64,000 nucleotides of DNA from Escherichia coli (GCF_016026235.1 NZ_CP065613.1), one strand, 5' to 3'; positions 59,732-64,000 are shown, counted from the stretch's first letter. The notes: generated by a model not told the origin, from the letters alone. Made by a program: numbers and translations.

Positions 59732-61702
59732 TCAGAACGTATACTCGACACCTGCCCAGAAATTGCGGCCTTCTTCAATAAACCCTTCACTGTAGGCATA
59801 TTGGGTATCAAACAGGTTATTGACCGACGCATTGACGCTGAAGCCATGACCTAAGGTGTAATCGGCTCGAATGTGGGTCACCGCAAAACCGGCGGCTTTT
59901 TGTGAACCGTCACTGTTGCTGTAGCTGGAGGAACGCGCCTCTTCCGACAGCGTTACGCTTAACGGCTCCCACGGTTTGAGAGTCATCCATGCGGTCATTG
60001 TCTGCGTTGGCAGATCGGTTATCTTGCCGATGTCTTTGCGTTTGGCGTCAGCGTGGATCAGGGCGTAGCTCAATCCTACATCCAGTATATTGCTGATTTT
60101 CCCCTTAATACCGGCATCCAGACCGCTGTAATCCACCGTGCCGCTGTTCTGATTTTGAATGGTATCGGCATCGATATTGTGCGAGAGGATGGCATCACTC
60201 ACCCGGTTATAGTAAACGCTGACCTCAAATCCCCAGTCGCGCGTGAAGGCACCATTCCAGGTTAAATCCACCCCGCGAGCGCGTTCCGGCTTGAGCTGCG
60301 GGTTAACAATCGCTATCTGGTTATACGCAGGTTTGGATGTGGTATAGCGTTCTTTCAGCGTCGGAAAGCGTGTGCGGTCATAGTACGAAAGCGCCAGCGT
60401 GTCTTCATTGGCAAAGTGGTATTTCCCCATCACTTGCCAGTTAAAAGCTGACTGATTGTTGTCGTCATAATGGGTGATGCTGTCATCTTTCTCGTGTTTT
60501 TTCGCTTCTACGCTATCGCGCCAGTCATAGCTGATTCCAGCCACGACATCGACATTATCGGCAGCAGCCCATTGATATTCACTGGCGAGCGACCAGGTAC
60601 GATCTTCATAGCGATCGTAAGCGGCGTGCGGCGCACCTTTTTCCCGGTGTACGTCATCTTTCCAGTTAACGGCAAACGACAGCAGATCGTTTTCACGCAC
60701 ATCGGCTGCCAGTTGTAATCCGGCACCGTCGCTGTAATCGGAATAATGGCTGTAGCTGCCTTTTTTATTTTTCAAATCAGCCAGCGAGTTGTACATCATC
60801 AGCGTATTTTCAAAGGTGTCGCGATACAGCCGACTTTTCAGGGTAAAACGATCGTTTAGTTGGGTCGTTCCCTGATAATAAAAACTTTCTTTGTCATACT
60901 CTGGCCACTGCCAGTAGCGTGATTTTTGACCACTATTTCCGCTGTATGGCGGGTTATCTTTTTCACCATCCTGCTTAATGTAAGTCAGTGTGTATTCATC
61001 GTTTTCACGTGGTGTAAATCCGAGCTTCACAATGCCGCGTTTATCATCAGCCGATGAATTAATCATCTTGCCGTGTTTGCCTGCAATATCATTATTTACA
61101 CCATGCGGCAGGCCGAGAAAATCCTGCTTTAGCTGGCTACCGCTGACTTGCAAATACCCCAGATCGCTACTGGCGGCAAATGAAGCATGCATATCGTAGG
61201 CATTGTCCTGGCTACGGCTCCATCCCTGGCGATATCCCAGACTTGCTTCCAGAGGTTTTGTTGGCTTCTGGGTGGTGATATTAATGGCTCCGCCCATCTG
61301 ATTAGGCCCCTGAAGCAGCGACGAATACCCTTTGGAAACTTCGACTGCCCCCAGATTGTTGGTCAGAATCCGCGCCAGATCGAGGTTGCCGTCATAGGGA
61401 ACATAAATGGGCACACCGTCGAAATAGACCGGCACCTGCCGACTATCAAAGCCACGAACTTTTACCTGTTCTTCGTTGCGGCTGCCTGGCTTTTGCAGCA
61501 CCACGCCGGGGACGACACTTAATGCCTGAGCGACATTCTGTTTATCCAGGGCCTTCATGGTGGGTTGATCGAGAACGGTGGTCGTCGTCGATGATACCGG
61601 ACTGGACCATACGGTCAGCGAGTCGCTCTCCTGAGCCGCTACGGCCTGCTGGGTAAAGGCAAGTGATAATGCTGTGCAGAGATAATGTTTTTTGAGTCTC
61701 AT
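59732..61702 (-). CDS. TonB-dependent outer membrane receptor
   Basis: Start at ATG 61702 (MRLKKHYLCTALSLAFTQQAVAA signal peptide); plug-domain motifs, C-terminal ...GVEYTF with terminal Phe; 656 aa. Confidence 0.88.
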   Translation of the reverse strand: MRLKKHYLCTALSLAFTQQAVAAQESDSLTVWSSPVSSTTTTVLDQPTMKALDKQNVAQALSVVPGVVLQKPGSRNEEQVKVRGFDSRQVPVYFDGVPIYVPYDGNLDLARILTNNLGAVEVSKGYSSLLQGPNQMGGAINITTQKPTKPLEASLGYRQGWSRSQDNAYDMHASFAASSDLGYLQVSGSQLKQDFLGLPHGVNNDIAGKHGKMINSSADDKRGIVKLGFTPRENDEYTLTYIKQDGEKDNPPYSGNSGQKSRYWQWPEYDKESFYYQGTTQLNDRFTLKSRLYRDTFENTLMMYNSLADLKNKKGSYSHYSDYSDGAGLQLAADVRENDLLSFAVNWKDDVHREKGAPHAAYDRYEDRTWSLASEYQWAAADNVDVVAGISYDWRDSVEAKKHEKDDSITHYDDNNQSAFNWQVMGKYHFANEDTLALSYYDRTRFPTLKERYTTSKPAYNQIAIVNPQLKPERARGVDLTWNGAFTRDWGFEVSVYYNRVSDAILSHNIDADTIQNQNSGTVDYSGLDAGIKGKISNILDVGLSYALIHADAKRKDIGKITDLPTQTMTAWMTLKPWEPLSVTLSEEARSSSYSNSDGSQKAAGFAVTHIRADYTLGHGFSVNASVNNLFDTQYAYSEGFIEEGRNFWAGVEYTF

Positions 61703-61727
61703 AGAATAAATTCCGTTTAACAAAGAA

Positions 61728-62582
61728 TTAAATAGAGGCTGCGGGTTGCAGACTGGCTTTGATGTCAGCCGGTGCCGCGTAATAAGGCGCGGAGGTAATA
61801 AAGAGGCGAATGCCGCAGTCGAGGTAATTTTTGAGTGTCGTCAGATTAATTCCGCCGGTCAGAGCCAGCGTGCAGTGGGGAGCCAGCGACGGCGCTATTT
61901 GCGCAATTTCAGTTGCCTGTTGCGGACTAAATTTGTCGAGCTGAAGTACGTCTGGTTGCGCGCGTAACGCGGCGATTGCCTCTTTCGGCGTGTCGGCTTC
62001 AACAACAATTTTCTTCTCGGGTGCGTGGCGACGTAACTGATTGATTGCGCCTGACCAGTCCTGATTGTCATGAAGAAAATGGCGGTGGTTAGCAAACAAT
62101 AATATGGTTTCCGCACATCCGGCACGATGAATCAGTCCTCCGGCAGCCAGAATTGCCTGCGAGGCCAGTAAGCGGGTGCCCGGAATTGCTTTTCGGGTGC
62201 AGGCGATATTGCCATCAGGATAACGTTCACGAAGTAACGCCAGCATTTGATCGAGATAATCAGAAACACCGCAACTCCACTCCAGCACATTCTGGATTGC
62301 CTTCCATCCCTGATGAAGTGCTGCGGCATTACCCTGCGCACGGATTAGCCGCTGACCCGCGTTCGCTTGTGAACCGTCGCTGACCGCGTCATCAATAGTT
62401 AATCCCAGCGTAGTTAACATCTTACACGCGACAGAAACGCCGCTGACGCAGCCGCCCTGACGGAGAAAAAACTCTATATAGCCATGCTGGTGTCCAATAT
62501 TTAATGCTCTCGTGGTCAGGTCACCGCCCTGGATATCTTCCAGAAGTAACGCATCGATTTGTGCCTGAGAAAGGAAAATCAT
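61728..62582 (-). CDS. ModD-like protein (quinolinate/nicotinate phosphoribosyltransferase family)
   Basis: 284 aa; QPRTase-like motif TRKAIPGTRLLASQAILAAGG; 25 nt upstream of the receptor gene. Confidence 0.8.
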   Translation of the reverse strand: MIFLSQAQIDALLLEDIQGGDLTTRALNIGHQHGYIEFFLRQGGCVSGVSVACKMLTTLGLTIDDAVSDGSQANAGQRLIRAQGNAAALHQGWKAIQNVLEWSCGVSDYLDQMLALLRERYPDGNIACTRKAIPGTRLLASQAILAAGGLIHRAGCAETILLFANHRHFLHDNQDWSGAINQLRRHAPEKKIVVEADTPKEAIAALRAQPDVLQLDKFSPQQATEIAQIAPSLAPHCTLALTGGINLTTLKNYLDCGIRLFITSAPYYAAPADIKASLQPAASI

Positions 62583-63391
62583 CGCAGTGCCTCCTGCGGT
62601 ACGCTATCCCACCAGATGAGCGCCCAGTCGCGGCTGGCAGGGGCGAGGGCACGAGCATCTTGTTGTTGATACCAGCGATATAACCGCTCACGCTCATCGT
62701 CGTTAAGCGCGCCAAGACTCCAGCTGACGTTCTGCTCAAAACGTTCCCAGGTGCTGTTATCCTGTTGGCAATTTTGTCCACGGATAAAATCAACGTGGGC
62801 ATAAATTCCCATCTGATACAGGACGTTGAGCGCAAAGATATAGTTGGGTAATTCGATCACTTCCCGACCAGCCGCCCGCTGAATGGCTGGAGAGACGAAC
62901 GAGGTGCTGACCAGATGAGTCGTATAGACGCGAAGCCGTGCCTGATTATTCAGTTTGCTCATTGCCTGGCGCATATCAGCCACCAGAGTGGAGCGGGAAG
63001 CCACGGCAATATCGCAGCGTGGGAGGTCACTCCAGTCCTCTTCCCAGGCGCGCTGGATCCAGTGGACATTGTCTGCCTTCAGCGCGGCGGCGCGACGGGC
63101 GGCAACGTTCAGCATCCCCTGACTGTAATCAACGCCATAAATCGTCGTGAGTTTGTCAGCCAGCGCCAGCGATACGGTACCCGGTCCGCAGCCCATATCG
63201 AATAAGGTCTGAGCGCCTTGTAGGTCAATTTTAGCGATCAGTTGTTGCAGGTAGCTGTCCGTAGGCGAGGCGCAATTTTCCGCCATTTTTTCCGCCCGTT
63301 GATCCCAGTGATCCGGCGTTTTTTCTGTGCGGTGGGCCAGCTTGAGTTGCTGCAGATAAAGGTCTGCAAAATCAATATCATCAATGAGCAT
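62579..63391 (-). CDS. class I SAM-dependent methyltransferase
   Basis: 270 aa; motif I LFDMGCGPGTVSLALA; 4-nt overlap with the ModD-like gene. Confidence 0.8.
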   Translation of the reverse strand: MLIDDIDFADLYLQQLKLAHRTEKTPDHWDQRAEKMAENCASPTDSYLQQLIAKIDLQGAQTLFDMGCGPGTVSLALADKLTTIYGVDYSQGMLNVAARRAAALKADNVHWIQRAWEEDWSDLPRCDIAVASRSTLVADMRQAMSKLNNQARLRVYTTHLVSTSFVSPAIQRAAGREVIELPNYIFALNVLYQMGIYAHVDFIRGQNCQQDNSTWERFEQNVSWSLGALNDDERERLYRWYQQQDARALAPASRDWALIWWDSVPQEALR

Positions 63392-63400
63392 GATTTTTCC

Positions 63401-64000
63401 TTAGTGGCTAATTGCAGAGAGGTGATGATGAATCTGGTCGGCAGAAACCCGATACAGGGCAGCCAGTTTGTTTGTTGTTAACTGTTCGGTCGGTAAGCCT
63501 TGTGTTACTCGTCCATCTGGCTCTACCTGGATAATGCTGTCGGCAATGGCGTTGGCATGGAGCGGATGATGAGTCGACATTAACATTGTCATGCCGTTAT
63601 TTTTGAGCTGTGCCAGCGTGTCCAGTAGTTGGATCTGATGACCGAAATCGAGGCTGGAGGCAGGCTCATCCAGTAACAACAAGCGCGGTTGCTGGACGAG
63701 TGCACGGGCGATTAAAGCCAGCTGACGTTCACCGCCGCTAAGCGTATTCCAGCGTCGTGCCGCCAGATGCAAAATGCCCAGCTTTTCCAGTTGCTCCGTG
63801 GCTTTCAGGCGTTCTTGCTTACCGGGAACGGAAAAAGCGCCTATGGTGGGGGCCAGGCCCATCAACACCATATCCAGCACACTAAAAGCAAAAATACCGT
63901 CGTGCGCCTGCGGCACCCAGGCAATAGCCTGCGCGCGCTGGCGATGGCTGAGTGTCTGCACAGGGAGGCTATCCAGTAAGACCTCGCCTTTTAATAACGG
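63401..64000 (-). CDS. ABC transporter ATP-binding protein, FecE/FepC-like (partial, N-terminus beyond window end)
   Basis: LSGGERQ signature and Walker B LLLLDEP present; Walker A would lie upstream; minus-strand frame remains open to position 64000. Confidence 0.8.
   Translation of the reverse strand, partial: PLLKGEVLLDSLPVQTLSHRQRAQAIAWVPQAHDGIFAFSVLDMVLMGLAPTIGAFSVPGKQERLKATEQLEKLGILHLAARRWNTLSGGERQLALIARALVQQPRLLLLDEPASSLDFGHQIQLLDTLAQLKNNGMTMLMSTHHPLHANAIADSIIQVEPDGRVTQGLPTEQLTTNKLAALYRVSADQIHHHLSAISH

Follow-up and report, generated by a model that had tools for sequence, protein, structure and literature searches.

What does an operon import that joins an outer-membrane receptor and an ATP-binding cassette (ABC) importer to two cytoplasmic enzymes, one resembling a phosphoribosyltransferase and the other a methyltransferase? 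Such an operon is found at the end of a 64,000-nucleotide stretch of Escherichia coli DNA (GCF_016026235.1, NZ_CP065613.1; the whole stretch is called the window below), where positions 59732-64000 hold four tightly packed open reading frames (ORFs) on the minus strand. The genes were read from an ORF list and from the RefSeq annotation of E. coli FDAARGOS_943, which is 100% identical to the window from 59300 to 64000. Both agree with an earlier note, made from the sequence alone, which described a minus-strand operon, convergent with ymgE, of a partial ATPase gene and genes for a methyltransferase, a ModD-like protein and a TonB-dependent receptor, the successive genes being separated by 25, -4, and 9 nt. 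The note also held that simple import of a siderophore does not account for the ModD-like protein and the methyltransferase, and this view is retained here. We propose, with a probability of roughly 0.6, that the operon encodes a molybdate-repressed, TonB-dependent system for acquisition of molybdenum (or tungsten).

The complete transcription unit was read in the identical genome, and the four genes of the window constitute the distal two-thirds of it. Past the window end FDAARGOS_943 encodes a permease of the FecCD family and a periplasmic binding protein of class III, and 343 bp of intergenic DNA separate the operon from treA. The operon thus has six genes in the order binding protein, permease, ATPase, methyltransferase, ModD, and receptor. 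The permease, the binding protein and the promoter had been expected beyond the window end, and this is where they lie; the predicted pairing of a receptor with an ABC importer was likewise correct, the importer being of the FecCD/BtuCD type.

An indication of what the operon responds to is found at its promoter. In the window strain the palindrome CGATATATA-TGTAAA-TATATAGCG is located just downstream of a TTGACA hexamer and 24 nt upstream of the ATG of the binding-protein gene, and it matches CGnTATATA-N6-TATATAnCG at 16 of 16 positions. Strain 550 carries CGCTATATG-TGTAAG-TATATAGCG (15 of 16), also 24 nt before the first ATG. The ModE operators of K-12 were read directly; that of modA is CGTTATATT-GTCGCC-TACATAACG, 19 nt upstream of the ATG, and that of moaA is CGCTATATA-CATGAT-TACATAGCG. 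The 9-N6-9 architecture is common to all three boxes, and the half-sites of the operon box are nearly identical to those of moaA. When DNA was scanned for CGNTATATA-N6-TATATANCG at a minimum of 13 of 16 positions, the only hits in 56 kb of K-12 DNA were the modA and moaA sites, each operon-bearing E. coli locus had one, and the 64-kb window, which does not include the promoter, had none. A match of 15/16 was reached by one in 20,000 shuffles of the AT-rich 328-bp upstream region. A generic scan for promoters and terminators gave counts not above those of shuffled sequence and was useful only in flagging the palindrome. Since the box overlaps the -10/+1 region as it does at modA, repression by molybdate-bound ModE would be the expected mode of control.

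The operator is not peculiar to E. coli. Eighty loci from other species were fetched using ModD as bait, and they hold 105 sites, almost all of which fall into two groups by location. Sites of the first group, 45-60 bp upstream of the binding-protein start, were found in Escherichia, Citrobacter, Raoultella, Enterobacter, Klebsiella indica, Serratia, Pantoea, Erwinia, Pectobacterium, Proteus, Morganella, and Providencia. Those of the second group precede the receptor gene in the genera where the gap between the ModD and receptor genes is long, namely Proteus, Morganella, Providencia, and Pectobacterium, and this second box ties the receptor to the same ModE signal. When the upstream regions from 12 genera were aligned, the TTGAC of the -35 element and the ModE box were the only conserved elements. 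With an operator at the promoter that is conserved at the orthologous position, the operon is a predicted member of the ModE regulon.

The importer components point in the same direction. When compared with proteins of known structure in PDB, the permease is most similar to HI1471 (MolB) of Haemophilus influenzae (224 bits, E 2e-65), followed by FhuB (175), HmuU (168), and BtuC (146). The part of the ATPase encoded in the window belongs to the FecE/FhuC/BtuD group according to NCBIfam, and the closest importer ATPase in PDB is HI1470 (MolC) of H. influenzae (126 bits). Molybdate and tungstate are the substrates of MolBC-A, a type II importer, and molybdate represses molB (PMC4031551). In H. 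influenzae a modA-like gene, molCBA, modD, salX, and cysU are found in one cluster, HI1469-75 (PMC3928620). The profile of the binding-protein family matched 4PAG with 160 bits, 4OVK with 73, and MolA (HI1472) and 4HN9 with 60 each, and as the protein is far closer to 4PAG, the identity of the substrate is not transferable from MolA.

The receptor has a signal peptide, a TonB box (DSLTVWS) and a C-terminal Phe; its N-terminus reads MRLKKHYLCTALSLAFTQQAVA/AQESDSLTVWS and its C-terminus ends in VEYTF. It is named 'TonB-dependent receptor plug domain-containing protein' by the Prokaryotic Genome Annotation Pipeline, and in NCBIfam it matched the receptor subfamilies for heme, siderophores, and B12 over its full length but below threshold. 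The plug and barrel domains of Pfam were recognized in an orthologue from a metagenomic locus (L088, see below). As far as can be predicted, the protein therefore has what defines a TonB-dependent transporter, i.e., a signal peptide, a TonB box, a plug with a 22-strand barrel, and a C-terminal aromatic residue. A sequence search of PDB returned no relative at E<=1e-10, so the known structures provide no hint as to the substrate.

The earlier note placed the second enzyme of the operon in the quinolinate phosphoribosyltransferase (QPRTase) family with a likeness to ModD, and the assignment is firm, the protein scoring 502.5 bits against TIGR01334 (cutoff 178.85; residues 2-278). To our knowledge, ModD has been a protein family without a function since 1993. 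The Pfam domains QRPTase_N and QRPTase_C are present in its homologues. Identity with the QPRTase NadC was considered and rejected, as the score against nadC (135 bits) is below the cutoff of 198.4 and the cationic site is incomplete. In an alignment with the Mycobacterium tuberculosis QPRTase the ligands for phosphoribosyl pyrophosphate (PRPP) and ribose are retained, as are most of the cationic substrate ligands: T129-R130-K131 of ModD correspond to T138-R139-K140, H152-R153 to H161-R162, E195 to E201, and D216 to D222, while G243-G244 are available for the phosphate loop and K94 takes the place of R105. K172-D173 of the M. tuberculosis enzyme are replaced by F163-A164, and F163 is invariant in ModD. 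Because the residues of the PRPP site are kept and K172-D173 are replaced, ModD looks like an active phosphoribosyltransferase with an altered acceptor pocket. PDB contains no ModD structure, and the only proteins matched there were true QPRTases, with at most 73 bits.

Where ModD occurs apart from the six-gene operon, its surroundings are in every case connected with molybdenum, and a ModE box usually precedes it. In Yersinia alsatica and Pasteurella canis it is encoded behind such a box and after a second system consisting of ModA, a TIGR01581 permease, and an ATPase, and in Cedecea it is divergent from a system of this kind. In Acerihabitans, Sodalis, and their relatives the gene adjoins anfHD, encoding Fe-only nitrogenase, and a gene for a di-Mop protein. 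Fe-only nitrogenase is used when molybdenum is lacking. The arrangement in Acerihabitans arboris (L080 7079-11429; L074, L076, L078, and L081 are similar) has ModD divergently adjacent to anfH and anfD and next to the di-Mop molybdate-binding protein, and ModE boxes occur to either side. Although labeled Martelella alba, an alphaproteobacterium, L076 resembles the loci of Enterobacterales; the record may be mislabeled or the region horizontally transferred. Edwardsiella has a methyltransferase-ModD pair behind a ModE box. In Edwardsiella hoshinae (L027 9101-14432; also L045 and L053) the pair is followed by a small ORF, a ThiF/MoeB-like adenylyltransferase, a 226-aa protein, and an EamA-family exporter, with gaps of 87 and 360 nt; as a candidate operon this set could serve biosynthesis and export of a small molecule. 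In the nif cluster of Zymomonas, modD occurs together with modE and two TonB-dependent transporters (PMC8594446).

The methyltransferase is of the class I S-adenosylmethionine (SAM)-dependent type and has many invariant residues beyond the SAM motif. No specific function was obtained from NCBIfam, from sequence comparison with PDB, or from Foldseek: it belongs to no specific NCBIfam family (the best match, very weak at 43 bits, is CpaM, a corrinoid-protein-associated methyltransferase), PDB matches did not exceed 25 bits, and an AlphaFold2 model (predicted local distance difference test score 88.5) retrieved only generic small-molecule methyltransferases at a template modeling score of about 0.5. 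Among 5.8 billion proteins 170 relatives were found, none of them named, and all from Enterobacterales and a few Shewanella. By these comparisons the family is narrow and operon-linked. A homologue with 40% identity is encoded in a metagenomic organism with 70% GC, in an operon with the order receptor, DUF2478, binding protein, FecCD, ATPase, and methyltransferase (L088 3587-9813, L089 925-7151). The receptor of this operon is 32% identical to that of E. coli over the full length (E 1e-90). DUF2478 here stands where ModD would be expected, which suggests that the module of receptor, importer, and methyltransferase is old and that ModD is exchangeable. For DUF2478 neither an NCBIfam family nor an informative paper was found. 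Upstream of the receptor gene in L088 and L089 there is a palindrome, CGCTATTCA-TTTTT-TGAATAACG, which is like a ModE box except that the inner bases and the spacing differ. Shewanella mangrovi (L087 9001-12788) has a 64%-identical methyltransferase with neither ModD nor an importer; its neighbors encode a protein with a Nitro_FeMo-Co (NifX-like) domain and a rhodanese-containing pyridine nucleotide-disulfide oxidoreductase, and a TonB-dependent receptor is found 4 kb away.

Taken together, a system of the following kind can be envisaged. When molybdate is plentiful, molybdate-bound ModE would occupy the operator over the -10/+1 region of a single promoter in front of the binding-protein gene and keep the operon off; when molybdate is scarce, ModE would leave the operator and the operon would be expressed. 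The receptor, energized by TonB, would then move molybdenum (or tungsten) in some form through the outer membrane and concentrate it in the periplasm, where the binding protein would pass it to the MolBC-like type II ABC importer for transport into the cytoplasm. The imported species could be the oxyanion itself, taken up from very dilute solution, or a larger complex of molybdenum with a ligand, and ModD, which is predicted to be cytoplasmic, and the co-conserved small-molecule methyltransferase would act on this species or on its organic ligand. The combination of a TonB-dependent receptor, a BtuCD-type importer, and two potentially ligand-modifying enzymes fits a bulky complex better than it fits free molybdate. 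We know of no molybdophore made by E. coli. A tentative extension, which we regard as somewhat unlikely, is that the receptor takes complexes of molybdenum (or tungsten) with organic ligands from other organisms or from the host, for instance a catecholate, a pyridine-carboxylate 'molybdophore', or a cofactor-derived compound, and that ModD and the methyltransferase disarm or recycle the ligand in the cytoplasm, thereby freeing the metal. If so, this would be the first pathway for TonB-dependent molybdophore piracy in Enterobacteriaceae, ModD would, 30 years on, have a biochemical function, and the poor binding of free molybdate by MolA of H. influenzae would be explained.

K-12, represented by strain J53, reads ymgE-ycgY-treA at the position of the operon, as stated in the earlier note. 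The homology between K-12 and the window extends to 59755, so that it covers the last 24 bp of the receptor gene, and restarts within treA at 88.5% identity. The operon region is present in 2138 of 5426 complete E. coli genomes (about 39%). The order treA-operon-ymgE-ycgR is also found in E. albertii and in eight Citrobacter genomes, and in E. albertii ycgY is present in addition to the operon. The operon also adjoins treA in Raoultella, Enterobacter, and Intestinirhabdus. The shared arrangement in E. albertii and Citrobacter indicates that the operon is ancestral at treA-ymgE and that, judged from synteny, it is not a recent acquisition but was lost in the K-12-type haplotype. The description as an accessory locus thus stands as far as the absence from K-12 and the patchy occurrence in E. 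coli are concerned, but not if it is taken to mean a recent insertion. The last 210 bp or so of treA are 88.5% identical between K-12-type and operon-bearing haplotypes (L002 7079-7292 vs. L003 12187-12400), while ymgE is about 98% identical, and this difference appears to place the recombination or deletion boundary on the treA side within that gene.

The same order of six genes was found in Escherichia, Citrobacter, Raoultella, Enterobacter, Klebsiella indica, Symbiopectobacterium, Serratia, Pantoea, Erwinia, Pectobacterium, Affinibrenneria, Proteus, Morganella, and Providencia. Among the products, conservation is highest for the methyltransferase and the receptor, with 93-94% identity to those of E. 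albertii and 81-84% to those of Citrobacter, compared with 71% for the binding protein and the ATPase. The order maintained across Enterobacterales and the conservation of the products are probable signs of selection and are counted in favor of the proposed system. A 3.2-kb contig labeled Collinsella sp. (L007, JAIJJM010000374.1) encodes proteins 97-99% identical to the ATPase, methyltransferase, and ModD of E. coli; it is almost certainly E. coli DNA that was mis-binned into an actinobacterial metagenome-assembled genome.

Some copies of the operon are damaged. An amber codon, TAG for TGG, stands at codon 123 (W123) of the binding-protein gene (L001 17811-18833) of the genome identical to the window, and at the 3' end of the permease gene (L001, around 16885) a deletion of 26 bp between CAACAAAA direct repeats causes a frameshift and fuses the gene to the ATPase ORF. 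Both lesions are located outside the window. Given the amber codon and the frameshifting deletion, the importer is probably defunct, and import in the window's own strain is probably dead. BLAST-based counts of the 26-bp deletion cannot separate the alleles, as single nucleotide polymorphisms break the 28-mers and the pieces flanking the deletion get joined. An O157-like strain (L004) has a stop codon in the methyltransferase gene, a lesion unlike those of the window strain, and by their sequences the lesions represent independent decays within a clade of at least 99% identity. Both flanks of the operon are damaged in this strain (PNUSAE151638; L004 2881-4928 and 12195-13879), ycgR being split by an element of the IS3 insertion sequence family and treA being frameshifted. 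The copy in Citrobacter koseri is also degraded. Seven carriers were sampled at even steps down the identity ranking, and all six genes were intact in all five of those that fell outside the >=99%-identity band.

Several points weigh against a molybdate-repressed system for molybdenum uptake. The usual cargo of type II importers and TonB-dependent receptors is a bulky chelate and not a small oxyanion. The binding protein is only distantly related to MolA, the uncharacterized 4PAG being much closer, and MolA itself binds molybdate weakly, at about 100 µM (PMC3928620). Control by ModE is predicted from sequence. In a published transcriptome of O157:H7 Sakai modABC was down by 1.3-2.8 log2 at one time point and ECs1693-1699 were not among the changed genes, which is weak evidence against tight co-regulation with modABC. 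ECs1691 did change together with modA; it was considered as an operon gene and rejected, being a fragment of ycgR. The locus is moreover absent from about 60% of the complete E. coli genomes, in the clade of the window it appears to be decaying through different lesions in two strains, and published work labels the cluster as iron uptake (PMC1890555; PMC12928451).

The locus is already catalogued, with the same genes at the same ymgE-treA position. In extraintestinal pathogenic E. coli (ExPEC) and adherent-invasive E. coli (AIEC) strains it is GR 9, 'ymgE..treA', described as the 'prrA-modD-yc73-fepC cluster (possibly mediating iron uptake)' with reference to Ye & Xu 2001 (PMC12928451). In O157:H7 it is part of S-loop 83, or O-island 55, where ECs1693-ECs1697 (Z1961-Z1964) are given as homologues of a CFT073 cluster 'proposed to be involved in iron uptake' (Guyer et al. 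1998) and ECs1698-1699 as putative transport proteins; this region is specific to O157 lineages I and I/II and is absent from lineage II (PMC1890555). The whole locus is Z1961-Z1966 in O157:H7 numbering. It can consequently not be regarded as unrecognized. On the other hand, searches of open-access papers and bioRxiv preprints returned no experimentally assigned substrate or regulation for it and no link to ModE, so the well-characterized system with a known substrate that the earlier note had allowed for was not encountered.

If the label were right, the receptor would import a ferric siderophore or another iron chelate such as heme, the FecCD-type transporter would carry it inward, and the ModE-like palindrome would be irrelevant or of secondary importance. 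The names and the nearest families lean this way: the RefSeq name of the binding protein is 'iron ABC transporter substrate-binding protein', the best of the sub-threshold receptor matches are to the heme and siderophore subfamilies, and the ATPase resembles FecE, FhuC, and heme ATPases in NCBIfam. However, the curated cutoff of an iron family was reached by no component (TonB-siderophore 122 vs. 223.5, FecE 104 vs. 375). The Fur box that had been expected upstream of the first gene is missing as well; there is no match within 3 mismatches anywhere in the locus, and the best one in the 328-bp upstream region has mismatches at 6 of 19 positions and was equalled by 388 of 2000 shuffles (19%). 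A ModE operator is found in its place, only this box and the -35 element are conserved across the 12 genera, and a ModE box is also present at the second promoter that Proteus, Providencia, and Morganella have before the receptor gene. The accepted label is an assignment from homology; it is unsupported and is contradicted by the predicted promoter elements, and we regard iron uptake as improbable. Import of an organic, cofactor-like compound for which the need depends on molybdenum status is another explanation, which we find unlikely. The cargo would then be a pterin related to molybdopterin or molybdenum cofactor (Moco), a corrinoid, or a foreign molybdenum-binding metallophore valued for its ligand, and ModD and the methyltransferase would be salvage or tailoring enzymes. 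Large cofactors are typical cargo of BtuCD-family importers and TonB-dependent receptors, the best NCBIfam match of the permease is an archaeal BtuC (242 bits, sub-threshold), and the weak match of the methyltransferase to CpaM may be read in the same way. The PRPP-site residues of ModD would be expected in an active phosphoribosyltransferase acting on an aromatic acid, the modeled methyltransferase appears to resemble enzymes acting on small molecules and natural products, and the distant operon keeps the methyltransferase while ModD is exchanged for DUF2478. Against this, no Rfam riboswitch or other RNA, including those for cobalamin and Moco, was found at E<=1 in the 7.4-kb operon region with its leader, no protein has significant similarity to known pterin or corrinoid enzymes, and ModE senses molybdate itself and not a cofactor. 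The proposal overlaps with the chelate version of molybdenum uptake and is inseparable from it in silico.

It could also be that the operon is a decaying relic that has no current function in the window strain, and perhaps not in E. coli generally, and that its organization reflects ancestry. The amber codon and the gene fusion in the window strain, the methyltransferase stop codon in the O157-like strain, the division of yc73 into ECs1695 and ECs1696 in the O157 annotation, the degraded copy in C. koseri, and the absence from most complete E. coli genomes and from O157 lineage II would all fit. The four genes of the window are nevertheless intact ORFs, the five carriers sampled outside the band of closest relatives retain the whole operon, and gene order, proteins, and operator are conserved across many genera. 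We therefore consider a relic to be the least probable of these explanations, and uptake of molybdenum (or tungsten) under ModE control remains the preferred one.

The features in the window are listed in Table 1. The hairpin sits between the two convergent stop codons, those of ymgE and the receptor gene; it is terminator-like for ymgE and possibly acts for the operon too. The ATG at 61702 is the receptor start used by RefSeq, and a longer ORF starting with TTG reaches 61723 (663 aa). The stop codon of the methyltransferase gene overlaps the start of modD by 4 nt, and the ATPase gene runs about 159 bp past the window end, so that the full gene would end at approximately 64159.

Table 1. Features of the operon and its ymgE flank within the window.
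Feature	Position	Strand	Description and basis
ymgE	59428..59682	+	Convergent core-genome flank common to K-12; RefSeq annotation of identical genome
Intergenic hairpin	59695..59724		10-bp stem GCGGATAGCG/CGCTATCCGC, 10-nt loop, then TTT; read from sequence
'prrA' (Z1961/ECs1693)	59732..61702	-	TonB-dependent outer-membrane receptor, 656 aa; ORF and RefSeq
modD (Z1962/ECs1694)	61728..62582	-	ModD family, type II phosphoribosyltransferase fold, 284 aa; TIGR01334
'yc73' (ECs1695/1696)	62579..63391	-	Class I SAM-dependent methyltransferase, 270 aa; ORF, NCBIfam, and RefSeq
'fepC' (Z1964/ECs1697)	63401..64000	-	ABC ATPase, 3' 600 bp only; ORF, NCBIfam, and RefSeq

A second accessory difference from K-12 is found a few kb from the operon, where a hypothetical gene of about 470 codons, absent from K-12, lies on the minus strand between dadX and cvrA (window positions 53005-54414, approximately). 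The neighboring cvrA (55035-56771) is described by RefSeq as 'missing C-terminus' in the identical genome, yet it is a 578-aa ORF in the window.

Extraintestinal pathogenic, adherent-invasive, and O157 lineage I strains of E. coli commonly carry the cluster, and it is routinely listed as an iron-uptake virulence locus. If it serves ModE-controlled scavenging of molybdenum, a widely used annotation is wrong, and pathogenic E. coli would possess a second, high-energy means of obtaining the metal on which respiration of nitrate, formate, dimethyl sulfoxide, and trimethylamine N-oxide depends. These forms of respiration drive the blooms of Enterobacteriaceae in the inflamed gut and are the target of tungstate therapy. 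ModD would also become testable in a genetically easy host, together with its dedicated methyltransferase.

When it comes to known systems, the regulatory part of the operon is shared with the ModE regulon of E. coli, comprising modABC (repressed) and moaABCDE (activated), in that the operator has 9-N6-9 spacing with CGnTATATA half-sites and the box is close to the start codon as at modA. The operon itself is missing from K-12, where this regulon was defined, and it is unlike ModABC, a type I importer for the free oxyanion that has no outer-membrane component. The overall architecture, a receptor, a class III binding protein, a FecCD permease, and an ATPase, is that of Fec, Fhu, Fep, and BtuB-BtuFCD, but the operon differs from these in having neither a Fur box nor a B12 riboswitch, no component at a curated cutoff, and two embedded cytoplasmic enzymes. 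Azotobacter vinelandii has TonB-dependent receptor-ABC operons that are turned on when molybdenum is lacking (PMC9542535). By description these resemble the proposed role of the E. coli operon, being induced by molybdenum or vanadium starvation and connected with catecholate 'molybdophores'. The nif cluster of Zymomonas has, like the operon, modD linked to TonB-dependent transporters (PMC8594446). Both organisms are, unlike E. coli, diazotrophs, and their systems are controlled by VnfA/NifA.

The closest relationship is to the mol locus of H. influenzae (HI1469-HI1475). For the permease of the operon MolB is the closest match and for the ATPase MolC, the binding protein and MolA are both of the class III family, modD is adjacent in both, and expression is repressed by molybdate in H. 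influenzae. The operon differs in its additional TonB-dependent receptor and dedicated methyltransferase, in a binding protein nearer to 4PAG than to MolA, and in lacking the ModA-like ABC system found at the mol locus. As judged by these homologies, the E. coli operon and the mol locus are related; the operon has gained or kept a receptor and a methyltransferase, its binding protein comes from another branch, and the predicted system is thus a combination of known kinds, MolBC-type molybdate import and TonB-dependent metal uptake, placed under ModE.

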